The notes below the pieces were generated by a model. That model did not search any database and was not told the DNA's origin. It saw only the letters and a program-made list of their open reading frames with translations. 64,000 nucleotides of DNA, taken from IMG/VR virus record IMGVR_UViG_3300005077_000018, positions 1,686-65,685 of that record. One strand, written 5' to 3'. Origin of the DNA: a virus. Of this stretch, positions 1,808 through 58,518 are shown in pieces (the first letter of the stretch is position 1; every line of letters begins with the position of its first letter). The position numbers and the translations under genes are program-made.

Positions 1808-2170
1808 ATGGACAACCCGATACCCACTATCCTCGACCCGAACGACCGAAGCATCTCTGACGTCACCCGCAGAATGTTGGCCGACGCCTTCCGCGATCAG
1901 GGGCTTCAGGAAGTGGTCTACTTTCCTGACGGCGGAAGAAAGATGTCTTACGCCTCGGCTCTCTCCAAAATGATCTGGCAGGCTCTAGTTGAGGGAGAGA
2001 TGTATTTCGCTGATGGAACTGTCGTCAAAGTGTCGGGTGAGATGAAACAGTGGATAGAGATTTTGAAATTTGTAAGTACTCACATCGACGGAGCTGCTGG
2101 AACTAACAATTCCGTCGGTCAGGTCAACATATTCAAGGTCTACAAGGGAATTGATACAGACAGGGTATAA
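1808..2170 (+). CDS. terS: Putative terminase small subunit
   Basis: Size and position two genes upstream of terL; ATG start in frame with track ORF 1763. Confidence 0.5.
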   Translation: MDNPIPTILDPNDRSISDVTRRMLADAFRDQGLQEVVYFPDGGRKMSYASALSKMIWQALVEGEMYFADGTVVKVSGEMKQWIEILKFVSTHIDGAAGTNNSVGQVNIFKVYKGIDTDRV

Positions 2171-2463
2171 TGAGAAATGATCTACACCCTACCGATCGCT
2201 CTCTTCCCGAACATGACACCCTCAACCCTCGAGGAGGAGAATTCGACGAAGAGTTCGCCGTCGCCAGTGAACTTCGGGTCATCGACCTCGGAGATTCCCT
2301 CACGATCGGAAGAGTTTTCCTGGACCCGTATGGGGATCCCTATTCCTATGAGACCGACACCCTCTACGCAGACAATCTTTCCGGTCTTCGGGAGATGGTC
2401 AGAGAGATTACTCTCGCTTTGAGCAGACCTGCTGTGAATTCTCGAGACATGATCCAATGCTGA
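2170..2463 (+). CDS. Hypothetical protein
   Basis: TAATG-coupled ORF between terS and terL. Confidence 0.6.
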   Translation: MRNDLHPTDRSLPEHDTLNPRGGEFDEEFAVASELRVIDLGDSLTIGRVFLDPYGDPYSYETDTLYADNLSGLREMVREITLALSRPAVNSRDMIQC

Positions 2464-3773
2464 GAGCTTTTGCTGATCCAACTCTAGATCCCAGAAATGC
2501 TCCGTATCAGCCCTTCGGGGTTGCGGAAGATTTGCTGTATGACCAGAGCGATCAGATCATTCTGTGCGGTCCATCGGGAACGGGCAAGTCCAGAGCTTGT
2601 TTGGAGAAGCTTCATCTGATCTGCTCCAAATACGCCGGAACCAGAGCTTTGATGGTTAGAAAGACTAGAGCTTCTCTAACTCAGTCAGCTATGGTGACTT
2701 TTGAGAAGATGGTCGTTCCTCAAAATGACTCGGTTTCTTTTAGAACGGGAGAGCAAGAGTACAGATATGTGAACGGTAGCGTCATAGCTGTAGGCGGAAT
2801 GGATAAGGCAATCAAGATCATGTCTACGGAATACGACATAATCTATGTCCAGGAGGCTACCGAGCTAAGTGAAGAGGACTGGGAAACTCTAACAACCAGA
2901 GCCAGATTCGGAAGAGTTCCATACAATCAGGTTATCGGGGACTGCAATCCGTCATTTCCTTTCCATTGGATCAAGCGGAAATCTGACAGAGGAGAGCTCA
3001 AACTCTACAATAGCAGACATGAGGACAATCCTGTTCTATTCAATCAAATTTTGAGGGACTGGACTCCCAAGGGAAGAGCCTATCTAGCTAAATTGGAGAA
3101 GCTGTCGGGTGTACGGTTCAAGAGATTGAGATTGGGAATCTGGGCCGCCGCTGAGGGAATGATCTATACGGAGTACGATTCTAACGTTCATCTACTGGAC
3201 AGATTTCCCATTCCCGCCGAGTGGGATAGATATTGGGTCGTTGACTTCGGTTTCACAAATCCCTTCGTATGGCAAGCCTGGGCGATTGATCCTGAGGGAA
3301 GAGCCTACCGTTTCGCTGAGATCTACCGTACTCAGCTCCTTGTGGAAGATGCCGCCGCTATGATTTCTGCTTGGAGAAGAGAGAACTCTGAGCTTCCTCC
3401 AGCGGCTCTAATTTGCGATCACGACGCAGAGGACAGAGCTACTCTTGAGCGACATCTCAATCTGACTACGGAGCCAGCTATAAAGAATGTCAGCGGCGGT
3501 ATTCAGACGGTCAAGGAGAGACTGAGGATCAGAGAAGACGGGAAAGCCAGAATGTATTTTCTGAGAGACTCAGTTTGGGATGTCGATGAGGAATTGGTTG
3601 ATGCTATGAAACCCTACTCTACTGAGCAGGAATTTGATGCGTATGAGTGGGCTGATTCCAGGAAGCGTGACGAACCCAAGAAAGTTGATGATCATGGCAT
3701 GGACTGTACCAGATATCTTTCGGTTCATCTTGATAACTTCGTAGACGCATGGTCTATGGGAATGAGTTCATAG
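2457..3773 (+). CDS. terL: Terminase large subunit (PBSX-like)
   Basis: Walker A GPSGTGKS, Walker B-like YVQEATE, DCNP, nuclease VDFGFTNP and DDHGMDCTRY. Confidence 0.95.
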   Translation: MLRAFADPTLDPRNAPYQPFGVAEDLLYDQSDQIILCGPSGTGKSRACLEKLHLICSKYAGTRALMVRKTRASLTQSAMVTFEKMVVPQNDSVSFRTGEQEYRYVNGSVIAVGGMDKAIKIMSTEYDIIYVQEATELSEEDWETLTTRARFGRVPYNQVIGDCNPSFPFHWIKRKSDRGELKLYNSRHEDNPVLFNQILRDWTPKGRAYLAKLEKLSGVRFKRLRLGIWAAAEGMIYTEYDSNVHLLDRFPIPAEWDRYWVVDFGFTNPFVWQAWAIDPEGRAYRFAEIYRTQLLVEDAAAMISAWRRENSELPPAALICDHDAEDRATLERHLNLTTEPAIKNVSGGIQTVKERLRIREDGKARMYFLRDSVWDVDEELVDAMKPYSTEQEFDAYEWADSRKRDEPKKVDDHGMDCTRYLSVHLDNFVDAWSMGMSS

Positions 3774-3792
3774 ACTTAGCAAGGAGATTGAC

Positions 3793-5763
3793 ATGGTTCG
3801 TTCAGACCAGGATAAATTCAAAACACAGGAACCGGAAGATTTCTTCGCTAATATGGTGAAGATTTATACCGATATAGACGAGGAGAAAGAACCTCCGTAC
3901 TCTAAGGATAGTCGTGCTCGGGATAAGTGGCTCATAGAATTTGCGAGGAGAGAGCCGCATTTGAGCGGAATACTGTCAAGTGTTACTGCCATTGATAAGA
4001 ACAGAGGGTGGTCTCTAATCGGATCGATGCGTCAGGTTAACAAGTACGCACGAATTCTTCACAATTTCAGAGTGTCTCCCGGTCTAAAGGGATGGCGTCC
4101 AGCTTTCGCTCAGCTGTCGGCATCATTCTGGGGCACGAATCTGGGCGCAGTTGTTGAAGTCGGTAGAGTGGGAGTTGATGGACCTGTTCAGGAATTCTAC
4201 ACAGCAGATCCGACTAAATTCGTCCTCGCAAAGGATCAAAAATTCCCTATTTACTATTATCCTTCCAATGGAAAGAGAATGAAGTGGAGAGATTCAGATT
4301 TCTTCAGGATTTGTTCTCTTCCTTCCATTCTCGAGGAGAACATGGGAATAGGATTCTGTGCCGTCGATCGTGCTGTTCAGCTTGCGAGACTGATGCTGGC
4401 TCTTTTTCGTCATGATGAGGAGATGCTTCTTTCTCGTGCTCCAAGAGGCCTTCTGCTTCTGTCCGGAATAAAGCGCGATCAATGGGAATCCGCTATGAAA
4501 GCAAGAGACGCGGAGCTGGATCAGGGTCAAATGAAGTATTTCGGAGCGATAGCCGTTCTTGCCTCAGCTTCCTCTACCGTTGAGGCGAAGCTCATGGCCC
4601 TTTCTCAGCTTCCGGCGGGTTTCGATCTGAAGATATGGATGGATATGATCATGTACGGATATTCTCTATGCTTCGGATATGACGCATCGGAATTCTGGCC
4701 GGTTCAATACGGTTCTTTGGGGAGAGGAAATGAAACACAGATTCAGCACGAGAAAGCAACCGGAAAGGGTCGTCTTGACTTCGTTCTCGGATTCCAGGAA
4801 CAGGTTACTGATTTTCTGCCTGAGTCTCTTGACTTTGTTGTTGAGCAGCGTGATGATCAGGGAGATCTTACTCGTGCGTCCGTTATTCAGGCGTGGGCGA
4901 ATGTTGCCAAATCTCTGTACACATCTCAATTGAACGGAATTCCTCTGGTAACGAATGAGGAGGCTAGAGTACTTCTGGCCGAGTACGGAGTTATTCCAGC
5001 TACGTGGAGTCCTACCGCCGATGCTTCTGCTACCGATATCGATGATGCTGACGACGAGGAAGTGGTCGATCAACCCGAAGACGAGGAGTCTGCAGGAGGA
5101 TCGTCAGAAGGGAACATGAAGCCAAAGTCAACCAGTCCTGACTCGGCTTCTCCCACCGCTGAGATGCTTCGGTCAGCTTACAAAACTCGAAGAATTCAAG
5201 ATTTAAGAGAGGTTGTTCTTCAGAAAGCTTCTGTGTTTGAAGCCGCGAGAAGATTTCCTAAAGAACCTATTGTTCAGTTTACTTACCCCGGGAATAATAT
5301 CCTGGAGCTGTGGAAATCAGGAGAGGATTTGATGAAACCTAGAGTTTGGGCTTCCATAGGAGATGTTGTTAGAAGAGCAATTCAGGAGAGTCTTCCTCCG
5401 GCAGTTGTCGGATCTGGTCTTGTTCAATCCAATCAGCCGACTCAACCTCAGATTGTGGTTGTAGATACTGAGGGAAGAATAGTTCAGCAAGCACGTCAAG
5501 AACCTTCCATAGTTGTGAACGTGCCCGAGCAGAATTTCCAGGTTGACTTGGAGAGGCTCGGTGAAGTCATAGCCAAACAACTGAAACAGGCTTCTGATCC
5601 TACGATAACTCTTACTCCGATCATTCAACTTCCAGAAATTCCTGTGATCGTAGAGAATAACGTAACTATCCAGGAGCCAGTTACCGAGGCGGTCGTAGAG
5701 GTCAACAGAGGATTCGACGGGAAGATTAAATCGGTAAAGAAAACTGAAAAGGTCATACGATGA
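3793..5763 (+). CDS. Portal protein with acidic linker and C-terminal extension
   Basis: Directly after terL, 656 aa, helical portal-like composition. Confidence 0.8.
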   Translation: MVRSDQDKFKTQEPEDFFANMVKIYTDIDEEKEPPYSKDSRARDKWLIEFARREPHLSGILSSVTAIDKNRGWSLIGSMRQVNKYARILHNFRVSPGLKGWRPAFAQLSASFWGTNLGAVVEVGRVGVDGPVQEFYTADPTKFVLAKDQKFPIYYYPSNGKRMKWRDSDFFRICSLPSILEENMGIGFCAVDRAVQLARLMLALFRHDEEMLLSRAPRGLLLLSGIKRDQWESAMKARDAELDQGQMKYFGAIAVLASASSTVEAKLMALSQLPAGFDLKIWMDMIMYGYSLCFGYDASEFWPVQYGSLGRGNETQIQHEKATGKGRLDFVLGFQEQVTDFLPESLDFVVEQRDDQGDLTRASVIQAWANVAKSLYTSQLNGIPLVTNEEARVLLAEYGVIPATWSPTADASATDIDDADDEEVVDQPEDEESAGGSSEGNMKPKSTSPDSASPTAEMLRSAYKTRRIQDLREVVLQKASVFEAARRFPKEPIVQFTYPGNNILELWKSGEDLMKPRVWASIGDVVRRAIQESLPPAVVGSGLVQSNQPTQPQIVVVDTEGRIVQQARQEPSIVVNVPEQNFQVDLERLGEVIAKQLKQASDPTITLTPIIQLPEIPVIVENNVTIQEPVTEAVVEVNRGFDGKIKSVKKTEKVIR

Positions 5764-6653
5764 GCGGTTTGTCCGTAGTCATTCCCTCCAGGAACGAGCT
5801 ATTTCTGGAAAATACAGTCAGGGATATTTTGACCAACTCAAGAGGAGAACTTGAGATCATCGTAGTTCTTGACGGATATTGGCCCAATCCTCCTCTACCG
5901 GACGATCGAAGAATCAGCATCATTCACAGAGGAAAAGCTAGAGGAATGCGTGACGGGATCAATTCAGCGATTAGTATAGCTCGCAACAAATTCGTCATGA
6001 AATGCGATGCTCATTGTCTATTCGCCGAGGGATTTGATGAAATTTTGAAGGCTGACTGCGACGATGACTGGGTTGTTATTCCAAGAAGATACTCTCTAAA
6101 TCCAGACACGTGGGGTCTAAATAAAAAGACTCCGGTAGACTATCATTTTCTGAGTTATCCGTGGTGGAAGCCTGAGATGCTCGGTCTTCATGGAACGGTA
6201 TGGACAGAACGGGCCAAGGAGAGGCTTCACATTACTCTGGACGAGGAAATGAGTTTTCAGGGATCCTGCTGGTTCACTACCAAGGATCATTTTATCAACA
6301 GAATAAGATTTCTTGAAGAGGAAGGATACGAAACTTTCATCGGAGAACCTCAGGAGGTTGGAAATAAAACTTGGTTGGGAGGGGGCAAGGTAATGGTCAA
6401 TAAGAAGACCTACTACGCTCATCTCCACAAGGGAAAGAGGTTCGGACGAGGATACTTCATGAGCAAAGACGAGACCTACCGAGGAAATCAGTTCAGTTGG
6501 AATTTCTGGTTCTACGACCAATGGTCTGACAGAATTCACGATTTATCCTGGCTAGTAGACAGATTTTGGCCCGTTCCATCCTGGCCTGAAAACTGGAAAG
6601 ACATTCATGAAAACGATATTAGACTTCGTAGAAAACCTGGAAAGTCCTCGTAG
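5760..6653 (+). CDS. Family 2 glycosyltransferase
   Basis: LSVVIPSRNE, EIIVVLDG, GMRDGINSA, KCDAH. Confidence 0.9.
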   Translation: MSGLSVVIPSRNELFLENTVRDILTNSRGELEIIVVLDGYWPNPPLPDDRRISIIHRGKARGMRDGINSAISIARNKFVMKCDAHCLFAEGFDEILKADCDDDWVVIPRRYSLNPDTWGLNKKTPVDYHFLSYPWWKPEMLGLHGTVWTERAKERLHITLDEEMSFQGSCWFTTKDHFINRIRFLEEEGYETFIGEPQEVGNKTWLGGGKVMVNKKTYYAHLHKGKRFGRGYFMSKDETYRGNQFSWNFWFYDQWSDRIHDLSWLVDRFWPVPSWPENWKDIHENDIRLRRKPGKSS

Positions 6654-7236
6654 ATCTCCCGTTGAAATCACCGGAGTTGGGAGAGATGATCTTGCGGTCT
6701 TCTTCCGGGAAGCTGGATTTCGCGTAGGAGTTGAGCTGGGAGTTGAGCAGGGATTGTTCACTGAGGTTTTAGCGAAATCTAATCCTGAGGCTAAGATTTA
6801 TGCGATAGATGCTTGGGAGGCATATCGTGGATACCGAGATCATGTGTCTCAGAGCAAACTGTCGGATTTCTATCTCGAGGCGAATAGACGGGTTAGAGAT
6901 TTGAACGTAGAATTGGTTGTAGCTTTCAGCATGGATGCTCTAGAGCAGTTTGATGACGAATCTCTTGACTTTGTCTATATAGACGCAAATCACGAACTAC
7001 CGTATGTGATCAGAGACATAATCGAATGGAGTAAGAAAGTTAGGAAGGGTGGAGTAGTCTCTGGCCATGATTATTACGAGTCAAAACGTATTTCCACCAA
7101 GAATCATGTAAAATATGCGGTAGATTGCTACACTAGATCCTATAGAATAAATCCCTGGTTCATTCTAGGTTCCAAAGCTAAGAATGACGGGGAAATCAGA
7201 GACAAATCAAGGTCTTGGATGTGGGTAAAACGGTAG
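6607..7236 (+). CDS. Class I SAM-dependent (O-)methyltransferase
   Basis: GVELGVEQG, DESLDFVYIDANH, GGVVSGHDY. Confidence 0.9.
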   Translation: MKTILDFVENLESPRRSPVEITGVGRDDLAVFFREAGFRVGVELGVEQGLFTEVLAKSNPEAKIYAIDAWEAYRGYRDHVSQSKLSDFYLEANRRVRDLNVELVVAFSMDALEQFDDESLDFVYIDANHELPYVIRDIIEWSKKVRKGGVVSGHDYYESKRISTKNHVKYAVDCYTRSYRINPWFILGSKAKNDGEIRDKSRSWMWVKR

Positions 7237-8135
7237 ATTTATCAGTAATCATTCCTGCTAGAAATGAGGAATTTCTGGGAGAAACCGTCAAAGGAGTCCT
7301 GGATAACTCAAGAGCTAACACAGAGATTGTGGTGGTTCTCGATGGAGAGTGGCCTGTGAATTCGTTGAGAATTGATCCGAGATTGTCCATTCTCTACCGT
7401 CCTGAAAGTATAGGTCAAAGAGCAGCTATGAATGAGGCGTTCAGGTTATCCAGGGGTCGATGGATCATGAAACTTGACGCTCATTGCGCTGTTGATGAGG
7501 GTTTTGATCGGAAGCTTTTGTCCGTTATCAAGCCCGATTGGACGATGGCTCCCTGCATGAAGAATCTCCATGTTTTTGATTGGGTTTGCTCTTGTGGGCA
7601 TAGAATCTACCAAGGACCTATACCTAAGAAATGTCCTTCTTGCTCTGGATCTTCTTTCAGTAGAGAAATAGTCTGGATTCCCAAATCCAGTCCTAACAGT
7701 TGTTCCTTCAGATTCGATCGAGATCTTCGCTTTCAATACTGGAGAGAGTTTGGAAAGAGGCCTGAAGGAAAGGGTCCTATAGCTCCGTCTTTGAGTCTTC
7801 AGGGATCTTGTTTCATGTTGTCTAGGGAAAAGTACGAGGAGTTGAATATAGCTGACGAGGAACATGGTTCTTGGGGTCAGCAGGGAACAGAGGTAGCTTG
7901 TAAGACGTGGCTTTCCGGGGGTCAGGTTATGATCATGAAGACTACCTGGTATGCTCATCTATTCAGAACTCAAGCTGGATTTACTTTTCCCTATAAACTT
8001 GAATCTGGACAGGTTGATCATGCTAGAAAATACTCTAGAGAGCTTTTTCTCGAGGGAAAATGGGATAAGGCTATTTACGATCTGAATTGGTTGCTTGAAA
8101 AATTCAAACCAGTTCCAGGATGGCATGATGGCTGA
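7215..8135 (+). CDS. Family 2 glycosyltransferase, paralog of 5760..6653, with Cys-rich insert
   Basis: LSVIIPARNE, VVVLDG, KLDAHC, QGSCF, KTWLSGG shared with the first GT; CxC...CPSC insert. Confidence 0.9.
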   Translation: MDVGKTVDLSVIIPARNEEFLGETVKGVLDNSRANTEIVVVLDGEWPVNSLRIDPRLSILYRPESIGQRAAMNEAFRLSRGRWIMKLDAHCAVDEGFDRKLLSVIKPDWTMAPCMKNLHVFDWVCSCGHRIYQGPIPKKCPSCSGSSFSREIVWIPKSSPNSCSFRFDRDLRFQYWREFGKRPEGKGPIAPSLSLQGSCFMLSREKYEELNIADEEHGSWGQQGTEVACKTWLSGGQVMIMKTTWYAHLFRTQAGFTFPYKLESGQVDHARKYSRELFLEGKWDKAIYDLNWLLEKFKPVPGWHDG

Positions 8136-8820
8136 AATAATTTACTATACTTGTAATACTCATCCTCCAGAAATAGATCTGAACTGCAGAAGAGTTCTGA
8201 AGGATGTTCCTCTAAGAATAGTGTGTGTATCTTTGAACTCTATGCTGGATTTCGGAGATCACAACATCATGATGACCGGAGAAAGAGGTCCTCTGATGAT
8301 GTTTCGTCAGATCCTTACCGGACTTCGTGCTTCAGATGACGACTATGTATTTCTTTGCGAGTCTGACGTTCTTTATCCGTTCAGTCATTTTTCTCCTCCA
8401 GCTATTTTGAGTAACGAATTTCTGTACAATACGAATGTATGGAAGATGAGGTTCTCTGACGGTTTACTGGTTTGGACCGACAACATGATTCAAGTAAGTG
8501 GTTTATTCAGCAGAAGAGAGTTTCTCATGGACTGGGTTTTCAAGAAGATCGATCAGATAAAGAAAGATGGATTTGATCGACATTACGAGCCTGGTGTTCG
8601 TCAGAAACTAAAATTCGACTGCAAAGTCAATACTTGGGAATCGGCGTCTCCTCTAGTTTGCGTCAGACACGACAAGAACTTGACCAAATCAAAGTGGTCT
8701 CCTGAGGAATTCAGAAATTCCAAGTTTGCCTACGGATGGAAGACCGCTAGAGAAATTCCTCTGTGGGGAACATCTGAGCAGATTCTGTCAATTTTTGGTA
8801 GAAGTGGAGAATCGAAATGA
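8125..8820 (+). CDS. Glycosyltransferase-like protein (GT-A fold)
   Basis: QILTGL...DDDYVFLCESDVLY motif; start probably ATG near 8125-8128. Confidence 0.6.
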   Translation: MMAEIIYYTCNTHPPEIDLNCRRVLKDVPLRIVCVSLNSMLDFGDHNIMMTGERGPLMMFRQILTGLRASDDDYVFLCESDVLYPFSHFSPPAILSNEFLYNTNVWKMRFSDGLLVWTDNMIQVSGLFSRREFLMDWVFKKIDQIKKDGFDRHYEPGVRQKLKFDCKVNTWESASPLVCVRHDKNLTKSKWSPEEFRNSKFAYGWKTAREIPLWGTSEQILSIFGRSGESK

Positions 8821-12458: not shown

Positions 12459-12467
12459 GAGAAATCT

Positions 12468-12992
12468 ATGAGTGCAAGTCTTCCAATCGAGTATCTCAGA
12501 GATCTTCCGTTTCATTTTCCAGCTTTTTTCGAGACTGGAACTTCAGAGGGAGATACGGTTCAGTCGGCTCTTGAAGCTGGGTTTTCAGAAATCTACTCCG
12601 TAGAGTTCCATCCAGAAATTTTTAGGAAGGCTCAAAGAAGATTCGTCGAATCCAAAAATGTGAGTTTGCTGAATTTCAAATCGGTGGAAGGTCTCAAAAT
12701 TCTAATCCCGTTTATTGAGGTTCCTACCGTATTCTTCCTGGATGCTCATCCCGATAGAGATGCGGGAGAATCTCCAATCTTGGAGGAGCTAGACGAGATT
12801 TCCAAATTCAAGCTTCCGTTTGTAATATTCGCTGATGATATGAGACTCATGGGTCAGGGAAAATGGTCAAGATCTTCTACCTCGGCTATTCAAGAGAAGA
12901 TTCTGTCTATCCATTCTGATTTTATGATAGATTTTATCGGCAACGGTCATTCAGATAGAGATCTTCTTAGAGCCGTGAGGAATTGGAAATGA
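12468..12992 (+). CDS. SAM-dependent methyltransferase-like protein
   Basis: FFETGTSEG, YSVE, FFLDAH, ILEEL, FADDMR. Confidence 0.7.
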   Translation: MSASLPIEYLRDLPFHFPAFFETGTSEGDTVQSALEAGFSEIYSVEFHPEIFRKAQRRFVESKNVSLLNFKSVEGLKILIPFIEVPTVFFLDAHPDRDAGESPILEELDEISKFKLPFVIFADDMRLMGQGKWSRSSTSAIQEKILSIHSDFMIDFIGNGHSDRDLLRAVRNWK

Positions 12993-14686: not shown

Positions 14687-14703
14687 TCGGTGACTAAAAA
14701 GTA

Positions 14704-14712
14704 TGCTATAAT
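14704..14712 (+). promoter_or_regulatory. Extended -10 promoter upstream of the scaffold/capsid genes
   Basis: TGCTATAAT followed by GAGG RBS and ATG 14734. Confidence 0.6.
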
Positions 14713-14733
14713 GGGTTATAACGAGGAATTGAA

Positions 14734-17366: not shown

Positions 17367-17385
17367 ACATAGGAGGATTATCGAA

Positions 17386-17451
17386 GTGAAGTTAATCTTT
17401 GACGGTAAAGTTACTGCGAAAGCAGATCTAACGCACAGAAGGAGTTTGTAA
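17386..17451 (+). CDS. 21-aa ORF coupled to the capsid start
   Basis: AGGAGG RBS, GTG start, MKLIFDGKVTAKADLTHRRSL, TAATG overlap. Confidence 0.35.
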   Translation: MKLIFDGKVTAKADLTHRRSL

Positions 17452-18737: not shown

Positions 18738-18760
18738 TCATTTCCTGATCCTCCTTGAAA

Positions 18761-18792
18761 GAGGGTGGGAGATCCGAAATTCTCCCACCCTC
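18761..18792 (+). terminator. Perfect 12-bp hairpin after the capsid gene
   Basis: GAGGGTGGGAGA / TCTCCCACCCTC, 8-nt loop; no U tract, so attenuator or stabiliser. Confidence 0.6.
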
Positions 18793-18806
18793 GAAGGAAT
18801 AAAAAA

Positions 18807-44543: not shown

Positions 44544-44544
44544 A

Positions 44545-46609: not shown

Positions 46610-46842
46610 TAGTTCTGACTTGTATCGACTGCAGAGGATTAGTGGAATCCAGAGGAGGATTCCCTTACTGCGAAAGATGCGGTAAGTTCTTGTATATGTA
46701 TCAGATTAGATTTACCGTGGTTCCTACGCCAGAAAACTGGACAGAAAAAGAGGAGTTTTTAGATGTCAGAACAACCCCAGAAGGATTACATAACGACATT
46801 CGATCAACTGGAGAGATGCAAGGGTCATCCGATATCTCTTGA
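46606..46842 (+). CDS. Small Zn-ribbon protein
   Basis: CIDC...CERC; overlaps the polA start. Confidence 0.5.
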   Translation: MIVLTCIDCRGLVESRGGFPYCERCGKFLYMYQIRFTVVPTPENWTEKEEFLDVRTTPEGLHNDIRSTGEMQGSSDIS

Positions 46843-48727: not shown

Positions 48728-48729
48728 CA

Positions 48730-48903
48730 ATGGAGGTTCTTATCTGTCCTTTCTGCGACTCCATATTTCTTCAAGAGTATGATGCTGGAGACGAATGTCC
48801 GGAATGCGAACTAGGAGTCCTCATATCATTCGATGAGTATTTAGAGAGAATAAGCTCCTCATTTGGAGAAGCATTCTCATTCTTCAGAGGTTCAGATGAG
48901 TGA
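48730..48903 (+). CDS. 57-aa Zn-ribbon protein
   Basis: CPFC...CPEC; not in the ORF track. Confidence 0.6.
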   Translation: MEVLICPFCDSIFLQEYDAGDECPECELGVLISFDEYLERISSSFGEAFSFFRGSDE

Positions 48904-51382: not shown

Positions 51383-51407
51383 ATTCATTACAATTTTTTT
51401 GCCATAG

Positions 51408-51452
51408 TTTTATATGGCTTGTGTATTTTACGCATATAATCGAACGTTGTAG
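51408..51452. repeat. 45-nt dispersed element, copy A
   Basis: 40/45 identical to 56521-56565. Confidence 0.9.
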
Positions 51453-51520
51453 GGGCATGTTTTTGGTCATTAGGCAGGTACGCGCAAAAAATAGCCCCGT
51501 TTCAGGTCAAAAGTGGGCTA

Positions 51521-51549
51521 TTGCAAAATATTTTCTGGCGGGTTATAAT
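51521..51549 (+). promoter_or_regulatory. Sigma70-type promoter
   Basis: TTGCAA-17-TATAAT. Confidence 0.85.
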
Positions 51550-51597
51550 AAATTGTAGCAAAAAATTCTTTCGTCTTCAAGAGATAAGGAGGCTAGT

Positions 51598-51915
51598 ATG
51601 GGTACAAAATTCACTATCGAAGAGGTTGACTTCTTCCCATCAAAGCGTGCGGTCAGCAACGAGTACTCTCCAATATACGAGATGATTGCGTCTGCTCCCC
51701 TGGAAAGTCCCCGAAGAATCGGTCCGTTCAGTCGTCGGGAAGCCAACAGCGTTCAGACCTCAATCACCGAGAAATTCAAGGATTCCTTGGAATTCAAGGT
51801 CTTTACGACAATTCGGGATATCCACGGAGATAAACCCTCCTCTGATGAGGAAGGTCGCTATGTCTTCGTGACAAAGGTTGCTCGGGTTAATCCCAACTCT
51901 TCCCAGGAAGATTAG
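51598..51915 (+). CDS. Hypothetical small protein
   Basis: AAGGAGG RBS. Confidence 0.75.
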   Translation: MGTKFTIEEVDFFPSKRAVSNEYSPIYEMIASAPLESPRRIGPFSRREANSVQTSITEKFKDSLEFKVFTTIRDIHGDKPSSDEEGRYVFVTKVARVNPNSSQED

Positions 51916-51934
51916 CAATCTGAATAAACATGCG

Positions 51935-52010
51935 GGGCCTCTAGCTCAGTGGTTAGAGCGGACGGCTCATAACCGTTTGGTCGCTGGTTCGATCCCAGCG
52001 AGGCCCACCA
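51935..52010 (+). tRNA. tRNA with CAT anticodon, likely Ile2 (lysidine, reads AUA)
   Basis: Cloverleaf GGGCCTC/GAGGCCC, loop CT-CAT-AA, TTCGATC T-loop, encoded ACCA; resembles ileX-type more than Met tRNAs. Confidence 0.9.
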
Positions 52011-52159
52011 TGTCACAGTAATTTTCGGGCGTGGTGAGTAGGCAGAAGGCAGTAGAAGGATACCGCGACAAGATCGCTAAACTCGAGACCGTGATCACCT
52101 CAGTACCGGCGTCGAGGGAACCGTAAACCTCAAAAAAAAATTCACTATAGGAGTTTTAT

Positions 52160-52312
52160 ATGGGACCGAATGATGATAAGAGGGAACGAGAAAGAAGAGA
52201 GCGTGCTGAGCAAGAAGCAAGAAGACTTGCCGAAGAGCTCAAACGAAAGATTGAAGAGCGAGAGAATGCTCAGAGGGTTATAGAGCGAATGAATCAAGGT
52301 AAGAAACCCTAG
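52160..52312 (+). CDS. 50-aa charged single-alpha-helix peptide
   Basis: AGGAG RBS; ER/K-rich. Confidence 0.6.
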   Translation: MGPNDDKRERERRERAEQEARRLAEELKRKIEERENAQRVIERMNQGKKP

Positions 52313-52323
52313 AGGGTCTAATC

Positions 52324-52396
52324 GCTCTCGTAGCTCAACGGACAGAGCATCTGCCTTCTAAGCAGAGGGTTGTGGGTTCGAATCCCACCGAGAGCG
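52324..52396 (+). tRNA. tRNA-Arg(UCU)
   Basis: GCTCTCG/CGAGAGC acceptor, TCTGC-CT-TCT-AA-GCAGA anticodon arm, GTGGG-TTCGAAT-CCCAC T arm; CCA not encoded. Confidence 0.92.
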
Positions 52397-52400
52397 CAAG

Positions 52401-52550
52401 CCTCGCGAACACGTACTCGGGGAACCCCCGACGAGGCCCGAACGGTAGAACATACGATGACATGTGCAGAGGTGAGTCCCAGTCCTGCAACCCACTACCG
52501 TTCTGAACTTTAAAAACGAGCGGGGAGCTAATGGCTCAAATCTTCCGCTC
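52401..52550 (+). ncRNA. Putative structured RNA downstream of tRNA-Arg
   Basis: Three consecutive stems, including perfect 9-bp GAACGGTAG/CTACCGTTC. Confidence 0.45.
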
Positions 52551-52564
52551 TTTAGGAGAGTGTT

Positions 52565-53140
52565 ATGAAAACACTACTCAATGCTTTGTTTAGAGCGCCA
52601 GTTCTAGTTATGGTAGCTCTGTCGCTGGCTCTGAGCGGTTGCTTTGGAGCTGTCAACCTCCCGGCCAATACTGAGGCTATTCTCTACTATACAGCGACTT
52701 CCGTTGGACCGAGAACGGTAGCCTTCGGCATCTCCCAAGCTCTCGCCGACAAGCCTGGAGCAGAGATTTTGATGAAGGGATCCCAGTATATCTTCCTATG
52801 GACCCAAGAGGGCATAGGGACCGCTATGTGGGCGATAGATCTCAAGAGTGGTACTGCGACCTGGGACGTCATTAAAAACCTAAATTTGGGAGGTCAAATC
52901 GGGAACTTCCGAGCAGTTTCTGATTTGAAGGCGTGGTTGATGAGACCGGAAAATGGGTGGACTATAACTACAGGATCCGCCCTAGCGTCGACTGCCAGAT
53001 CATTATTGACCTCAGCAATTTCTGCCGTTTCTTCGTCTACGCTTTCTCTCTATATGCTTACTCCGACAATGATGTCAGGATCTCAGGTTCCATGGGATCA
53101 CCTGATGCCCCCGGACGACTTCGAAATTCCACAGAGTTAG
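52565..53140 (+). CDS. Predicted lipoprotein
   Basis: Signal peptide with lipobox LSGC. Confidence 0.7.
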   Translation: MKTLLNALFRAPVLVMVALSLALSGCFGAVNLPANTEAILYYTATSVGPRTVAFGISQALADKPGAEILMKGSQYIFLWTQEGIGTAMWAIDLKSGTATWDVIKNLNLGGQIGNFRAVSDLKAWLMRPENGWTITTGSALASTARSLLTSAISAVSSSTLSLYMLTPTMMSGSQVPWDHLMPPDDFEIPQS

Positions 53141-53155
53141 GCACTCTAAACGAGT

Positions 53156-53211
53156 GAGAGTTGCTTGGAGCACGGATCCATGATTCGTCCGGTTCGATTC
53201 CGGAACTCTCC
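53156..53211 (+). ncRNA. Miniature tRNA-like element
   Basis: GAGAGTT/AACTCTC acceptor-like stem, CCGG-TTCGATT-CCGG T arm, CAT-loop hairpin. Confidence 0.55.
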
Positions 53212-53237
53212 TTTAATCTTTTTCTAAAGGAGATGAA

Positions 53238-53624
53238 ATGCTAGAAAGATTGATTCGGCTTTTGGTGGAACCCGTTCAGCGGGAAATATCGATTCGTCAG
53301 ATTGCTCGAGATTCCGGAATGAATTTGAGAGTTCTTCGCGACTCTGCGGATCTTCTTGACACGGTATACAGATTTTGTAGCAAGATGTCAATAAAACTTG
53401 ACGATCAATACAGTCTGGATACCAGAAATAGAGCACTTCTATTCTGCAGAAATCTTTTGGCTGTCCTGGTAACTGTGTCAGATGCCGAAGATTTAGAGGA
53501 GATGAACAGAGTAATAGACGGAACCAGCGAAATACTCTACTCTCTTATGGAGAGATCGTCGGAACCGGATAATCTTCTTCTGTACAAACAGTTCGAGGAT
53601 ATCGCTCGAGGAGACAGACTATGA
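53238..53624 (+). CDS. Hypothetical protein
   Basis: AAGGAG RBS. Confidence 0.65.
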   Translation: MLERLIRLLVEPVQREISIRQIARDSGMNLRVLRDSADLLDTVYRFCSKMSIKLDDQYSLDTRNRALLFCRNLLAVLVTVSDAEDLEEMNRVIDGTSEILYSLMERSSEPDNLLLYKQFEDIARGDRL

Positions 53625-54160
53625 ATCTGGATTTTATAACGTCTGACGAAATCTTCGTTATAGACACGGAAACTACTGGCTTGGGATCTACAGCTGAAGC
53701 GGTTCAGATAGCCATAGTAGACTACTATGGAAATATCAGATTCGATCAGCTGATTAAACCAACCTATCCCATTCCGATCGAAGTTTCCACAATTCATGGA
53801 ATACTCAATTCAGATGTCGAGAAGGCTCAAACACTTCACTATTACTGGGATATGATCAGACATCAGTGGATAGATGGAAAGGTTCTGACCGGATATAACG
53901 TCAACTTCGACATGAGAATTCTAACTACTACCTTGACTGCCAGAGATCCGGAAATAGCGAGAACCAGAATGCCTACTCCTCTTATGATTCTTGACGTCAT
54001 GCTTCTGGTCAAACATCATTTCAGACTCGAAAAATTTGTCAGTCTCAAAAAAGCTGTGGAACTTCTGGATCTTCCTCTTTCTTCCGGAGATGAATTCCAT
54101 ACGGCTAGAACTGACGCCGTAATGACAGCTATGGTTCTGAGAGAAGTTCTGAGCCTATAA
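53621..54160 (+). CDS. DEDDh 3'-5' exonuclease (DnaQ-like)
   Basis: IDTETTG, GYNVNFD, HTARTDA. Confidence 0.92.
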   Translation: MNLDFITSDEIFVIDTETTGLGSTAEAVQIAIVDYYGNIRFDQLIKPTYPIPIEVSTIHGILNSDVEKAQTLHYYWDMIRHQWIDGKVLTGYNVNFDMRILTTTLTARDPEIARTRMPTPLMILDVMLLVKHHFRLEKFVSLKKAVELLDLPLSSGDEFHTARTDAVMTAMVLREVLSL

Positions 54161-54568
54161 ATGGAAGCAATAACCTCAATCACGATCAGAAATTTGTATC
54201 TTCAATCTTCGAAACCTACCGTCAAAGAGAAGGTCTACGAAACATTCAGATCGACTTTGGCTGAAATCTCTCGAATTCTTCACGAGGATCCTCCTGACCA
54301 AACTTGGAAGTATGCTCAGGTCTTTGATAGCGTAGCTGTTGAATGGACTATAGCCTCTGTAGAGATCAACAAACTTCTAATCGACCTGAAATCTGAAGAT
54401 CTTGTGGCATCTGACGCGTTCAGAATACTTCTAAGAGCGGAGAACCCAACATTCTATTTTCGCCTGTTGATGGCGGGAATGACTCCTCTTCCCGACGAGG
54501 AGAATTTGACTTTGAAGGCTAGAGCTAGAGCGAGGAAGAATAATGGCAGAAAAAGACACCTTAACTAA
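54161..54568 (+). CDS. Hypothetical protein
   Basis: Operonic ORF. Confidence 0.6.
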   Translation: MEAITSITIRNLYLQSSKPTVKEKVYETFRSTLAEISRILHEDPPDQTWKYAQVFDSVAVEWTIASVEINKLLIDLKSEDLVASDAFRILLRAENPTFYFRLLMAGMTPLPDEENLTLKARARARKNNGRKRHLN

Positions 54569-54842
54569 TTCCTTTATGGACGGAGTGTGGAAAAATCTAG
54601 CAGAATCTATGGATGACCCCTCTCCGCTCTTTTCAACTACTATCACGATTTTCAAAATCAACGTTCTTAGAGACTCATTCAGAGCGATCGTTCATTTCCA
54701 CTTCTTGATCGTCATTTCCTGTTTCGTATATGCCGTTCTAGAACGCGGAGAAACGTTTATTCCCTGGATTCCTTTCGTTTCGTCGATGACGAGTCTCTTG
54801 ATCACTACCATGACGGTAAATTCTCGGGTGGTGAACTCATGA
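54543..54842 (+). CDS. Hypothetical protein, partly hydrophobic
   Basis: Overlap-coupled ORF. Confidence 0.45.
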   Translation: MAEKDTLTNSFMDGVWKNLAESMDDPSPLFSTTITIFKINVLRDSFRAIVHFHFLIVISCFVYAVLERGETFIPWIPFVSSMTSLLITTMTVNSRVVNS

Positions 54843-55666
54843 GCGAATTTTCTGCTCTCGTCGATGTTTGCAAAAGAAAGCTTCAGGATGTTGAAGAAGG
54901 TCATCTTCCTAAATTTTCCCTGGTTCAACCGAAATATGACGGATGGTGGACACTTCTCAGAATTCGTCACGAGATGATGCAATTCATAACATCCGGGGGA
55001 GAGGTGAGAAGCGAAATTCGCATTCCTGGATGCGAGGATGGATTGATCATAGCGGAGTGGATTATAGGAACCAACTGGAGCCTGCTTCAGAAGCAGACGG
55101 ATATAGCTGGAAAGGCTATTCTCCATACCGTTATTTCCATCGGTGGAGATGAAGTTTCTCTTCCTCTCGATAAGAACGCTGAAGTTCTTTCAGATTTCTG
55201 TCGTCGCAATCTTCCCGAGAATAAATTCAGAATGGTGGAGTCTTATCCAATCAGTCAGTGGAGAAACGTCTGGGAAGAATTCGTCGACTCTAAAGGATTC
55301 GAGGGATTGGTATTCAAGCAGGGATCTCTTCCCTACCATTCTTCAGCCCTCGGAAGGATGAAAAAGAAGATAACAATAGACTATGTTGTAATGGGTTTCA
55401 CTGAGGGCAAGAATAGACTTGAGGGAACTCTTGGAGCTATCGAGGGAGGTCTATTCGTTGACGGTAAACTGAAAAAGGTTTGCACGGTAGGAGGAGGATT
55501 TTCAGACTTCGATCGTCATTCAATTTGGAAGAATAGAGCAAATCTTATCGGAAAGGTCTTCGAGGCTACCGGAAAAGTTCTATTCGATTCGGGAGCTTTG
55601 AGACATCCAACCTTTATCCGATTTAGAGACGATAAGAAATCGGGAGAATGCATTTGGCTTGGATAG
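54839..55666 (+). CDS. Minimal ATP-dependent DNA ligase
   Basis: QPKYDG, EGLVFK, KMKK-like RMKK, OB fold LRHPTFIRFRDDK. Confidence 0.92.
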   Translation: MSEFSALVDVCKRKLQDVEEGHLPKFSLVQPKYDGWWTLLRIRHEMMQFITSGGEVRSEIRIPGCEDGLIIAEWIIGTNWSLLQKQTDIAGKAILHTVISIGGDEVSLPLDKNAEVLSDFCRRNLPENKFRMVESYPISQWRNVWEEFVDSKGFEGLVFKQGSLPYHSSALGRMKKKITIDYVVMGFTEGKNRLEGTLGAIEGGLFVDGKLKKVCTVGGGFSDFDRHSIWKNRANLIGKVFEATGKVLFDSGALRHPTFIRFRDDKKSGECIWLG

Positions 55667-56478
55667 GGTCAGGTAAAAGCAAGAGAGTAATTAGAATGGA
55701 CACAGGGGAGGTATTCTCCTGTGTCTATTCGATCGCCTATGTACTAAGAGTAGAAAGTAAAGCCATATTTCTATGTTGCGAAAAATACATTCCAACGGTA
55801 AAGGGAATTCGTCTGGAATGGCTTGAGCAATTTCTTCATGACCATCCTGAAAAAGCTGATTTTCCCAAATATCGTGTTCCGAAGCCGATTAGAATCAAGA
55901 AACCCAAGGAAATAGAAATTCCCAAGGGATACAATAGTCAGGGCAATCTTCGAAAATACAATCTGGGATTTCTGAAGCTCATGACCGAATTCCTGGATCA
56001 TGTGCTAAAAGATCAGGAAACAATTTCTCTGTCCTGCTATGAACTTGAGGTGGGATTTGTCGAGTTCGTGCGTCAAAAAAGACCTCTATTCAAGACTTCA
56101 GCCTCCGGAATATCGAGACATCTTCTCAATAAAAAAGACATATATGAGAAGACCTATGGAATGGAAGTTTCCGAAGGATACTCCGTAGAGTCCAGAAAAA
56201 ACGTTAATCTTTACAAATTTCACAGAGCGGAAAACGGTAGCAATCTTGTGGAAACAAGAGCCTACAATTTCAGATTCCATAAGACTGGAACTTTCCACTC
56301 AAGAAACGGTAAGCCAGTAATTAGAATGAGGGATAAGATGATATTTTCATCCATAAGAATGGCCTCAAAACTCACGTCGATATCTGCTAACAAGATAAGA
56401 TGGTGTTGTGAGGGAGACATCCCCGCTGTAAAACTTTTCGCTGGAGAAGAGGTTTTCAGATATGTCGAATTCCGCTAA
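55648..56478 (+). CDS. Protein with two NUMOD1-like DNA-binding repeats
   Basis: KRVIRMDTGEVFSC and KPVIRMRDKMIFSSIRMAS...IRWCC. Confidence 0.6.
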   Translation: MHLAWIGSGKSKRVIRMDTGEVFSCVYSIAYVLRVESKAIFLCCEKYIPTVKGIRLEWLEQFLHDHPEKADFPKYRVPKPIRIKKPKEIEIPKGYNSQGNLRKYNLGFLKLMTEFLDHVLKDQETISLSCYELEVGFVEFVRQKRPLFKTSASGISRHLLNKKDIYEKTYGMEVSEGYSVESRKNVNLYKFHRAENGSNLVETRAYNFRFHKTGTFHSRNGKPVIRMRDKMIFSSIRMASKLTSISANKIRWCCEGDIPAVKLFAGEEVFRYVEFR

Positions 56479-56520
56479 AGAGAGAAATTCATGTATTTAT
56501 TGGCGGTTGTACTGGTATAC

Positions 56521-56565
56521 TTTTATATGGCTTGTGCACTTTGTGCATAAAATCGAACGTTGTAG
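56521..56565. repeat. 45-nt dispersed element, copy B
   Basis: 40/45 identical to 51408-51452. Confidence 0.9.
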
Positions 56566-56632
56566 CGCCCCCAAAATATTCATTTAGGGGGCATGTAGCG
56601 CCCAAAAACTTTGTAGGAAAGGAAATCTGCGC

Positions 56633-56821
56633 ATGAACGAAAGAAACGAGCTGATAAGTCACATCAACGAAGTTGAGAGAAAACTCTTTAACACGAGTCG
56701 TGACGCGGAAGTTTTGATTGAGTCCATCCTTGTGTTGGCTAAGTCAGTCCTTCTTCTGGAAAATACCATAAGAAGGCCCGTATCAGAATATGACGAAAGT
56801 ATCAAGGTAAAAATCATATGA
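56633..56821 (+). CDS. Hypothetical protein
   Basis: AAAGGA RBS. Confidence 0.6.
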   Translation: MNERNELISHINEVERKLFNTSRDAEVLIESILVLAKSVLLLENTIRRPVSEYDESIKVKII

Positions 56822-57003
56822 GATGCTCAAGATGTGGAGGAAGAGGAAAGATCGTTACAGAACACTCGGTGTATGATCCATACGAGCGAAGAAATGTCGT
56901 CGTAAAACACGAAGTGAGTTGCTCAGCGTGTGGTGGTAGAGGAGAAATTCCCGATCCCAGAACATCTGAGGAAGACAGGTCCAAGAGAAAACTTGAGGAC
57001 TAG
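56818..57003 (+). CDS. DnaJ-type Zn-finger mini protein
   Basis: CSRCGGRG and CSACGGRG. Confidence 0.75.
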   Translation: MRCSRCGGRGKIVTEHSVYDPYERRNVVVKHEVSCSACGGRGEIPDPRTSEEDRSKRKLED

Positions 57004-57192
57004 ATGATTGCCGTAGGAGCTATCCTGGTAATTTTCGGATTGACTGATCTTCTGGTTCTTGCCTTTGAAGAATACTTCGACAAGACCACCAGAAATTTGA
57101 TCGTGGTAACTGACACCAAGAGATGCTCCTACTGCGATTCACCAATCCTCACTAAATCTTCCAAATGCAAGTTTTGTGGAGCAAACCTATGA
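57004..57192 (+). CDS. TM + Zn-ribbon protein
   Basis: N-terminal hydrophobic helix; CSYC...CKFC. Confidence 0.7.
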   Translation: MIAVGAILVIFGLTDLLVLAFEEYFDKTTRNLIVVTDTKRCSYCDSPILTKSSKCKFCGANL

Positions 57193-57437
57193 TCAAGTCG
57201 AAATCAGGAATCAGAAGAATCGCGGATACTCTTCTGAAAATCTTTAGCGGAGAATCATTCATAGTCGATCCTGCTCAATCCAGCAGAGAATCCTACGGAT
57301 CTCCCTCTAGTATACGGGGAAAACTCATCAGTGATCTCTATACAGAGGATGCATCTTTATCTGTGTCACTATCTGTATCTCCATCTGAAGAGGAATTTGA
57401 ATCTCCATCGGAAGAGCCGGGAGAGTACTTAGAGTAG
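57189..57437 (+). CDS. Hypothetical protein
   Basis: ATGA-coupled start within track ORF 57165. Confidence 0.5.
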   Translation: MIKSKSGIRRIADTLLKIFSGESFIVDPAQSSRESYGSPSSIRGKLISDLYTEDASLSVSLSVSPSEEEFESPSEEPGEYLE

Positions 57438-57451
57438 ACTGGACGATTCTT

Positions 57452-57658
57452 TTGAAACTGTCATTTGAAAGGTTAGTCGAATGGACTCTTTCTACCGTTC
57501 TTCAATCAAGACTATTTTCGCACTTTCGGCAGTATTGGGAATTCTGGTACTTTGTCTACTTCTTGTCGGAAGACTTTGCCTGGATGGACTATGCTAGAAT
57601 TCTCTTTCTTCTCGGAAGCATATCGTTTGGAATTTACGTTTTAGAAGCTATTTTATGA
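57452..57658 (+). CDS. Small membrane protein
   Basis: Aromatic/hydrophobic ORF. Confidence 0.4.
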   Translation: MKLSFERLVEWTLSTVLQSRLFSHFRQYWEFWYFVYFLSEDFAWMDYARILFLLGSISFGIYVLEAIL

Positions 57659-57683
57659 AGACGATAACTCACGATTTTAATCG

Positions 57684-58238
57684 ATGAAGACCTCTATTCT
57701 TAGAGCCAGAAGAAAAGATAGATTGGAAGTTCTTGAGGAATGGTTGAACTCAGGAACTCTTGTATATTGGAGAAGAGCTCCAGAAGTTCTCCACGAGTCG
57801 GGACTGGTGTCCGTAAATTACGGAATGAGTAACTTATACATGGATATATGGTATCTAAGAAGACCCTATCTTTCTCCGGATGTAAAATCTATGGAGGAAG
57901 CAGAGTGCGACTCGGGTAAAATATTGTTCCATGTAATCATGAGAAGTCTTCTAGATTTCAGATCCGGTAGGCCATGCGATTCCGGAATATGGAACGACGA
58001 CATGTCATCTGACTTCTCTTCTTGCACATCTGATCATCATCTCTGCTCAGGAGATGCCGAGAGGTTTCTGAAAACCTTAGATCCTGAGGTTGAGGAATTT
58101 TGCAATTTGTCCAGGGGGAAGATACGAGATCTGCTGAAATCTATAAAAAAAGACCCAATCTTTCAAATTGGGTCTATTCTTGACTCTGAGGAACCTACTT
58201 CATTTGTTGCTCTAAGAATCTCCAGTCTCCAACTCTAA
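57684..58238 (+). CDS. Hypothetical protein
   Basis: 184-aa ORF. Confidence 0.6.
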   Translation: MKTSILRARRKDRLEVLEEWLNSGTLVYWRRAPEVLHESGLVSVNYGMSNLYMDIWYLRRPYLSPDVKSMEEAECDSGKILFHVIMRSLLDFRSGRPCDSGIWNDDMSSDFSSCTSDHHLCSGDAERFLKTLDPEVEEFCNLSRGKIRDLLKSIKKDPIFQIGSILDSEEPTSFVALRISSLQL

Positions 58239-58518
58239 GCGCAAATTGAATTTGACTGTAGACTGAGGGACCGCAATGAGACGCTTCTTCTAGGAGCGTC
58301 TCTTTTTGTTCGTTTGTTGGATTTCTTCCCAAATTTTCTATCAACGGACTCATCTTTTCATAGCAGGTAAGCTGTCCTACCGAACCTCTTGCAAATCCCG
58401 ACAATTCCGAATAGGTAGGAATAATTTCATTCTTGGCAGATACCCCTATGATTATCATCGACATTCCCACAATTACCGCCGAAGAACTGAGGAAAGCTCT
58501 TAGAATTCTTGATCTCAT
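58195..58518 (-). CDS. Secreted or membrane-anchored protein
   Basis: N-terminal signal-like helix, two Cys. Confidence 0.5.
   Translation of the reverse strand: MRSRILRAFLSSSAVIVGMSMIIIGVSAKNEIIPTYSELSGFARGSVGQLTCYEKMSPLIENLGRNPTNEQKETLLEEASHCGPSVYSQIQFALRVGDWRFLEQQMK

Follow-up and report, generated by a model that had tools for sequence, protein, structure and literature searches.

A siphovirus genome dense in the GA/TC step

We analyzed a 64,000-nucleotide (nt) stretch of viral DNA (the window; positions 1686 to 65685 of the 70,023-bp IMG/VR record IMGVR_UViG_3300005077_000018, which is classed as linear and estimated to be 95% complete) in which the duplex dinucleotide step 5'-TC-3'/5'-GA-3' (GA/TC) is strongly overrepresented. 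Positions below are those of the window unless given as genome positions. The genome is of the siphovirus type, with genes for terminase, tape measure, Dit, and gp37-like tail proteins. Its head module is crowded with GT2 glycosyltransferases, and the phage has a large virion-glycosylation gene set. The replication module encodes an SNF2 helicase, a PD-(D/E)XK nuclease, AAA_24, PolA, an AEP primase, and a ligase, and it is followed by a leftward block of small genes. No close relative at the DNA level was found in the GenBank phage collection, where the nearest TerL was that of Thermobifida phage P1312 (49%).

Between positions 2170 and 58500, 10,170 GA+TC dinucleotides were counted against 6,951 expected, which corresponds to a symmetrized observed-to-expected ratio, rho(GA/TC), of 1.465 (z of about 41) and to a mean of 10.8 rather than 7.4 occurrences per 60 nt. 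An earlier note, made from the letters of this DNA, had described an enriched bulk within those limits and 11 to 12 occurrences per 60 nt in the lines starting at 28381 and 38461; recounting these lines gave 12 and 11, respectively. The enrichment was borne out, but its limits were too narrow, as it begins near position 1760, continues past the end of the window, and reaches roughly genome position 69,500. For the whole window, rho(GA/TC) was 1.436, and the values in the 2-kb bins covering 2001 to 64000 all lay between 1.32 and 1.61. At the left end of the genome (genome positions 1 to 3400, i.e., up to about position 1715 of the window), the G+C content (GC) is 0.51 to 0.59 and rho is 0.91, compared with a GC of 0.44 and a rho of 1.46 elsewhere. 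This left-end block closes with the 1,009-nt island described below.

The control set comprised 91 loci of at least 8 kb from unrelated phages. The rho of 1.46 exceeded the values of all 91 (median, 1.14; standard deviation [SD], 0.11; maximum, 1.36), and the 24 controls with a GC below 0.5 had a median rho(GA/TC) of 1.09 and a maximum of 1.22. The phage thus clearly stands apart from the controls, by about 2.8 SD, without being astronomically distant. Among the other dinucleotides, AC/GT (0.77) and GC (0.75) were depleted, and AA/TT (1.05), GG/CC (1.00), and CA/TG (0.91) were not enriched. Purine-purine/pyrimidine-pyrimidine (RR/YY) steps were enriched overall (1.16 to 1.18), with no excess of long purine tracts; purine runs obeyed a geometric law. 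A longer motif was considered and rejected: YTCY was the best context (TTCC, 2.35; TTCT, 2.15) and GTCN was unenriched, but the residuals under a maximal-order Markov model were small. The enrichment is essentially at the dinucleotide level. Helical or other periodic placement of the sites was also rejected, codon periodicity being the only one found.

Enrichment beyond codon and amino acid usage

The codon analysis was carried out on 64 confident genes (57.7 kb). On the coding strand, rho at codon phases 1-2, 2-3, and 3-1 was 1.35, 1.79, and 1.21 for GA and 1.57, 1.19, and 1.93 for TC, and this phase pattern was alike in plus-strand genes and in the 15 minus-strand genes. When the proteins were held fixed and synonymous codons were drawn by base composition, rho was only 1.15 and 1.12, similar to the values of ordinary phages. 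Shuffling synonymous codons within genes left 4,013 ± 22 TC dinucleotides, 40 SD short of the 4,884 observed. The codon junction NNT-CNN occurred 2,043 times, versus 1,169 expected. Codon use was strongly skewed, with GGA making up 64% of glycine codons, AGA 57% of arginine codons, TCN 79% of serine codons, and TTC 62% of phenylalanine codons; the serine content was raised (9.7%), and acidic residues added nothing to the GA/TC excess. Together, the phase-specific rho values and the two codon-aware null models place the excess in synonymous choice, codon junctions, and extra serine, and they rule out an artifact of codon or amino acid usage. The enrichment acts at the level of the DNA itself, in every codon phase and on both strands. 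A return of rho(GA/TC) to near 1 after codon correction, the outcome that the earlier note had set against its own proposal, was not seen; the enrichment survived the correction.

Even spacing of GA/TC

The spacing of the step was compared with two null models, a phase-specific Markov chain and a codon chain that preserves junction preferences. In coding DNA, we found 41 GA/TC-free gaps of at least 20 nt (85 to 91 expected; z of about -5.5) and 234 of at least 15 nt (328 to 352 expected), and the squared coefficient of variation (CV2) of the gaps was 0.38, compared with 0.45 to 0.47 under the null models. Of the dinucleotide classes whose two bases differ, only GA/TC was under-dispersed. AA/TT and GG/CC were under-dispersed as well, yet these classes overlap themselves and are handled poorly by the model. 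In a compensation test, synonymous codons that supply GA/TC were favored if no other site lay within 5 nt (Mantel-Haenszel odds ratio, 1.26; P = 3e-4). The step was present in 72% of 6-bp windows, compared with 53% expected.

Avoidance of restriction palindromes

Between positions 2170 and 58500, six-base palindromes without GA/TC (48 words) occurred 271 times, fewer than the 694 expected from base composition, the 414 expected under a first-order Markov model, and the 350 expected under a maximal-order model. Words with GA/TC, of which there are 16, occurred 442 times, which is 2.05-fold the base-composition expectation (215) and close to the first-order (416) and maximal-order (448) expectations. 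A split of the palindromes into these two classes had been proposed in the earlier note, and we ran it computationally for positions 2170 to 64000. Relative to the dinucleotide (first-order Markov) expectation, palindromes without the step stood at 0.64 (294 versus 458; z = -7.9) and those with it at 1.06 (485 versus 456; z = +1.5), and nonpalindromic control words without and with GA/TC stood at 0.95 and 1.02, respectively. Because palindromes without GA/TC are low and those with GA/TC are at expectation, the avoidance is real and ends at the words that hold the step.

GAATTC occurred 87 times in the window and 81 times between positions 2170 and 58500, where 16.6 and 37.8 occurrences are expected from base and dinucleotide composition, respectively. 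The seven positions that had been listed for this site (2239, 2436, 4052, 4192, 4690, 4937, and 5192) were all exact. Three further sites had been called common. This was so for GGATCC (31 versus 10.3 by base composition) and AGATCT (44 versus 16.6), but not really for TCTAGA (22, versus 16.6 by base composition and 35 by dinucleotide composition).

Four-base palindromes numbered 2,172, compared with 3,200 expected, and TTAA, GCGC, CGCG, and GGCC, which lack GA/TC, were at 0.15 to 0.40. The enrichment was rejected as a by-product of palindrome avoidance, since about 1,000 lost four-base palindromes cannot yield about 3,200 extra GA/TC and since the nonpalindromic control words were at normal levels. 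TTAA was very rare between positions 2170 and 58500 (53 occurrences, versus 343, 249, and 111 expected from base composition, dinucleotide composition, and the maximal-order model, respectively), and CATATG, ACCGGT, TGGCCA, ATTAAT, and TTTAAA were each at or below 0.2 of the dinucleotide expectation. The rarity of TTAA and of these hexamers may reflect host restriction systems.

GA/TC-purged island and step-poor gaps

An island purged of GA/TC sits upstream of the terminase genes and bears minus-strand genes, and intergenic gaps poor in the step or with GA-free runs lie farther to the right (Table 1). Of the TC dinucleotides left in the island, 20 of 42 are TCG, a pattern that was not seen in the island of a relative (L018). 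After TC in the bulk, G is the least favored of the four bases (0.77), and CGA/TCG falls short of the level expected from dinucleotides (0.85). These figures hint that TCG/CGA may be a poor target. An RNA reader of the CmdT or Rho type was considered for the island and rejected: the message strand has no UC but has 42 GA and many CC, and neither type fits.

Table 1. Features of the window discussed in the text
Feature	Coordinates	Strand	Composition or evidence
GA/TC-purged island, 1,009 nt	713..1721	+	GA 0 on the plus strand; TC 42, about half of expectation
GA/TC-enriched bulk	1760..64000		rho* 1.457; 11,185 GA+TC versus 7,682 expected; enriched in all codon phases
Seven GAATTC sites within 3 kb, illustrating GA/TC palindromes that are not avoided	2239..5197		Positions confirmed
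GT2 glycosyltransferase with C-terminal helix-hairpin-helix	18765..20132	+	Pfam GT2 and HHH_5; directly after the major capsid gene
Intergenic regulatory gap, GA/TC-poor	20464..20595		20480-20582: GA 2 versus 6.3 and TC 3 versus 4.9 expected
Candidate nucleotide/DNA-modification operon, then PolA	40924..46609	+	Pfam, PHROGs, NCBIfam, and PDB matches
Intergenic gap	51370..51581		Plus strand free of GA over 73 and 139 nt
Divergent regulatory region between rightward and leftward gene blocks	58519..58663		GA 1 versus 5.7 and TC 2 versus 6.9 expected; 140-nt GA-free run
SWIM-finger protein, 171-aa protein, and 505-aa GHKL ATPase (HATPase_c_3)	58621..62144	-	tblastn

Conservation of the signature in relatives

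Relatives were gathered into a clade (clade A) from IMG/VR scans with PolA, TerL, primase, and glycosyltransferase sequences and from whole contigs; the identity of their primases is 57 to 68%. Bulk rho(GA/TC) in clade A was 0.96 (G004), 1.13 (G001), 1.17 (G003), 1.23 (G005), 1.33 (G002), and about 1.38 (L017), compared with 1.44 in the phage described here. When six clade members are compared, the six phase-specific rho values all climb together as the bulk rises from 0.96 to 1.44, and the proportion of Asp plus Glu stays steady at 12.5 to 13.9%. Even spacing was found across the clade (z of -2.7 to -11), including G004 at a rho of 0.96. The exception was L009, for which the CV2 z was -0.2 on the locus; for the contig as a whole (G003), it was -4.3. 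Even spacing was absent in sister clades (G006, G007, G009, L013, and L015) and in unrelated phages.

Every relative sampled beside TerL has a full or partial purged stretch. Its length next to TerL is 1,004 nt in L017, 1,366 nt in L018/G005, and 1,014 nt in G004, and G001 is purged in part. In G004, with its bulk rho of 0.96, 595 nt of the stretch are free of the step on both strands. G005, which is complete and has terminal repeats, carries a matching nonenriched block together with its island at the genome end next to the terminase gene. The palindrome contrast (the ratio of the two palindrome classes, each relative to expectation) is common to the nearest relatives (L017, 1.71; L005, 1.48; L006, 1.45), and it is absent in relative L001 (rho, 1.00; contrast, 0.94). 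The step is therefore a conserved signal in the clade, and its bulk density is a variable, evolving trait that is extreme in the phage described here.

The gradient of density among the relatives is smooth and quantitative, as would be expected if a clade-specific, context-dependent mutation bias (through replication, repair, or damage) created TC/GA or destroyed AC, GC, and GT, with the island and the promoters being maintained separately by purifying selection. Such a bias would also fit the finding that nearly all of the excess is located where selection is weak (at synonymous sites and codon junctions), as well as the parallel fall of AC/GT and GC and the presence of the phage's own PolA and DenV-type pyrimidine-dimer glycosylase. 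However, it predicts neither the under-dispersed spacing nor the palindrome contrast beyond dinucleotide expectation, and it does not predict that the same dinucleotide is purged from an island that is kept in G004 at a bulk rho of 0.96. We consider a mutational explanation unlikely. The glycosylase gene, of the T4 endonuclease V type, lies outside the window at genome positions 66970 to 67449 (L115:1371-1850, minus strand; Pfam Pyr_excise, E = 2.8e-22). TC and CT steps are prone to UV photoproducts, which makes the enzyme noteworthy in a genome rich in TC and CT.

The relatives also bear on an ordinary compositional cause, i.e., host mimicry, a thermophile-type RR/YY stacking bias, or a preference for certain codons or codon pairs. 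The overall enrichment of RR/YY steps and the strongly skewed codon usage would agree with such a cause, and most phage loci are mildly GA/TC-rich (median, 1.14 to 1.16). However, AA/TT and GG/CC are unenriched, GA and TC are both raised on the coding strand in every phase, relatives of similar GC span rho values from 0.96 to 1.44, and neither the island nor the spacing is explained; we regard this cause as very improbable. Regarding the host, capsid homologs in prokaryote assemblies (L170 to L174) were nearest on contigs of Chloroflexota metagenome-assembled genomes (MAGs; Anaerolineae and Caldilineae) in 5 of 5 cases, with 38 to 55% identity, which provides a weak lead to Chloroflexota as the host phylum. 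These MAG contigs have a GC of 0.57 to 0.70 and a rho(GA/TC) of 0.87 to 1.21, and their composition gives no support to host mimicry.

Search for a modifying enzyme and candidate genes

Searches of the entire 70-kb record at E ≤ 1 detected neither TGT/DpdA (Pfam PF01702), for which all 14 control genomes were matched, nor QueC (PF06508). At the same threshold, there was no match for the ThyA family (PF00303; dUMP 5-hydroxymethyltransferase), C5-cytosine methyltransferase (PF00145), or TET/JBP dioxygenase (PF12851). No N6/N4 DNA methyltransferase was found in the record, and none of FolE, QueD, and QueE turned up in Pfam scans of 60 open reading frames (ORFs), most of those of at least 100 amino acids (aa). 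A tblastn search with gp49 to gp59 of Pseudomonas phage M6, among them its 5-hmdU (5-hydroxymethyldeoxyuridine) DNA kinase (gp54) and amino acid:DNA transferase (gp51), against the genome and five relatives gave nothing below an E value of 0.2, at a sensitivity (that of BLAST) at which remote homologs could be missed.

A candidate operon for nucleotide or DNA modification lies just before PolA (Table 1). It begins with genes for a protein with an FAD-type Rossmann N terminus, a fusion of a MazG/dimeric-dUTPase-like domain with a HAD/PNK-type phosphatase, and a small protein; two GT-A glycosyltransferase-like genes, a variant ThyX, an S-adenosylmethionine (SAM) methyltransferase, and an uncharacterized protein follow in this order. 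The ThyX-family protein (44515 to 45285, plus strand) scores 65 bits, compared with a TIGR02170 cutoff of 87.9, and has RTR in place of the RHR motif. The GT-A-like ORFs (42952 to 44543) score 21 and 16.5 bits, under the Pfam cutoffs, with one PHROG glycosyltransferase match (8e-5). We infer that a fused dNTP pyrophosphatase/phosphatase beside a variant thymidylate synthase would suit the exclusion of a canonical pyrimidine. The GT-A genes of the operon were rejected as a predictor of rho, as an apparent trend over six genomes was broken by L119, L120, and L122.

The genes for the SWIM-finger protein, the 171-aa protein, and the GHKL ATPase (Table 1) were detected by tblastn in 5 of 5 sampled genomes that bear the signature and in none of three signature-less genomes (G006, G007, and G009). 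A more sensitive search matched the 171-aa protein weakly in G006 (E = 1e-8; 26% identity). The N terminus of the ATPase is weakly similar to restriction enzymes of the BbrUII/HgiDII type (E = 1.8e-5), and neither the ATPase nor the 171-aa protein could be given a function from the ESM Atlas. These genes would be candidates if the step were unmodified and read by a protein, either a phage factor that coats or compacts DNA or a nuclease system that tells self from nonself, such that regular coverage protects or organizes the genome. A protein reader would predict the density, the even spacing, the spared palindromes, and the step-free regulatory windows equally well, and the restriction of the three genes to signature genomes by tblastn, together with the weak BbrUII/HgiDII likeness of the ATPase, is consistent with it. 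To our knowledge, however, no DNA-binding protein reads a two-base step at such a density. In addition, the GHKL ATPase family is widespread in viruses, the gene association comes from a few related genomes, and the weak G006 match to the 171-aa protein, in a genome lacking the signature, speaks against a strict association. We regard a protein reader as quite improbable.

The glycosyltransferase gene that follows the major capsid gene (Table 1) was considered as a possible DNA glycosyltransferase and was rejected as a predictor of the signature: the 25 loci that carry the gene have a median rho of 1.04 and a median spacing z of 0.1. This GT2-HHH family is large and occurs on phage-sized metagenomic contigs. 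HHH_5 is present in many members, a PMGCCG motif is conserved, and some members reach about 640 aa and have an additional domain at the N terminus.

Comparison with known modification systems

Phage modifications mapped to a dinucleotide context are of two kinds: preQ0 at GA/GGC via DpdA (PMC7544227) and thymidine hypermodification derived from 5-hydroxymethyldeoxyuridine (5-hmdU) at TG/TC. The context of the latter has been given as TG or TC (PMC6449724) and as mainly TG and less TC (PMC13458397). Thymidine hypermodification of the M6 type is partial, post-replicative, and dinucleotide confined, and it blocks many Type II enzymes. M6 itself, a TS-context modifier (NC_007809), resembles the phage described here in its even GA/TC spacing (CV2, 0.48 versus 0.58 under a model that preserves dinucleotides; z = -9.0); its CA/TG spacing has a z of -2.0, and phage ViI gave weaker effects. 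The even TC/GA spacing thus has one experimentally grounded parallel, M6. In contrast to the phage described here, rho(GA/TC) in M6 is only 1.19, and its genome lacks a step-free island, the longest GA/TC-free gap being 51 nt. The phage described here differs in turn from the 5-hmdU system, as it has no ThyA-type hydroxymethylase, no 5-hmdU kinase, transferase, pyridoxal phosphate (PLP) enzyme, or radical-SAM enzyme detectable by BLAST, and a CA/TG value of 0.91.

In the DpdA/dPreQ0 system of phage CAjan, the GA step lies within the modified context, and the modification protects from restriction (PMC7544227). CAjan has DpdA, whereas the phage described here has neither TGT/DpdA nor QueC. In the methyltransferase-TET-glycosyltransferase route, 5-hydroxymethylcytosine is made at methyltransferase sites and then glycosylated by glycosyltransferases akin to cell wall glycosyltransferases (bioRxiv 10.1101/2023.12.21.572611; PMC8256090). 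This route is post-replicative and acts in a short context, and the phage described here has putative GT-A-like genes inside its replication module; however, it lacks both a C5-methyltransferase and a TET/JBP dioxygenase. With regard to restriction site avoidance in phages, the strong avoidance of four- and six-base palindromes without GA/TC is alike, but here the avoidance ends at palindromes that contain GA/TC.

A putative protective mark at GA/TC

The composition, its independence of codon usage, the even spacing, the palindrome contrast, and the conservation in relatives were observed; a covalent modification, the base that would carry it, and the enzyme that would write it are inferred. 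Our best explanation, which we hold with roughly even confidence, is that TC/GA is the context of a protective mark, that coding DNA has been selected for dense and even coverage, and that windows in which the mark would be unwelcome lack the step. Under this proposal, the duplex step would be a functional signal in the clade, and virion DNA would bear at the step a protective mark that is probably a post-replicative base hypermodification. Selection would have raised the step density evenly via synonymous codons (GGA, AGA, TCN, and TTC), NNT-CNN junctions, and extra serine. Palindromes with the step would have been freed from purging pressure, and those without it would still be purged. The promoters and the 1-kb, putatively early, island by the terminase gene would be held free of the step in order to stay unmarked. 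The idea of selection to maximize a protective GA/TC modification, raised in the earlier note, is thus partly supported: the sequence statistics behave as it would predict, but no writer of such a mark was found among the searched families.

In a more specific form, this Chloroflexota-linked siphophage clade would mark TC/GA by a route unrelated to DpdA, ThyA/5-hmdU kinase, and methyltransferase-TET, its whole coding sequence being tuned to carry the target densely and evenly, with the early island and the promoters left without it. The route might involve the ThyX variant, the MazG-HAD fusion, and the flavoprotein, with glycosyl or methyl decoration in some members. It would be the first case of a genome composition visibly coevolving with the specificity of a phage's own modification. 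We offer this form tentatively and consider it unlikely to be right as a whole.

Several observations weigh against a protective mark. No writer enzyme was found among the searched families, in a record estimated to be 95% complete. The ThyX-like/MazG-HAD/flavoprotein core, which is common to clade A, is also present in G006 and G007, which lack the signature, and the glycosyltransferases of the operon are present in L119 (rho, 1.13) and missing from L120 (rho, 1.14). Among 63 loci, the palindrome contrast of the phage (1.66) ranks no higher than about the 94th percentile, two unrelated loci exceeding it, and TCGA, hexamers holding TCGA, and TCTAGA are below their dinucleotide expectations. 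The codon compensation is modest, and AA/TT gives a similar effect. CAjan, a GA modifier, has a rho(GA/TC) of 0.88 and random spacing; because it shows no enrichment, maximizing the target is not a general rule among context-specific modifiers. Finally, there is a small but appreciable chance that the density, taken by itself, is of mutational origin.

If a protective mark at GA/TC does exist, composition alone could expose the presence and the specificity of DNA modification in uncultured phages, with target dinucleotide density, under-dispersed spacing, split palindrome avoidance, and target-free islands as the markers. It would also imply a modification pathway without any known writer enzyme, and a phage coding sequence molded by the phage's own anti-restriction chemistry, beyond the effect of host restriction sites. 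The spacing statistic flagged M6, an experimentally verified modifier, which suggests a cheap screen for metagenomes. One further IMG/VR record, IMGVR_UViG_3300035208_001320 (L133), combines an ordinary rho(GA/TC) of 1.00 with stretches of 643 nt without GA and of 518 nt without TC, and it may hold another step-free island.

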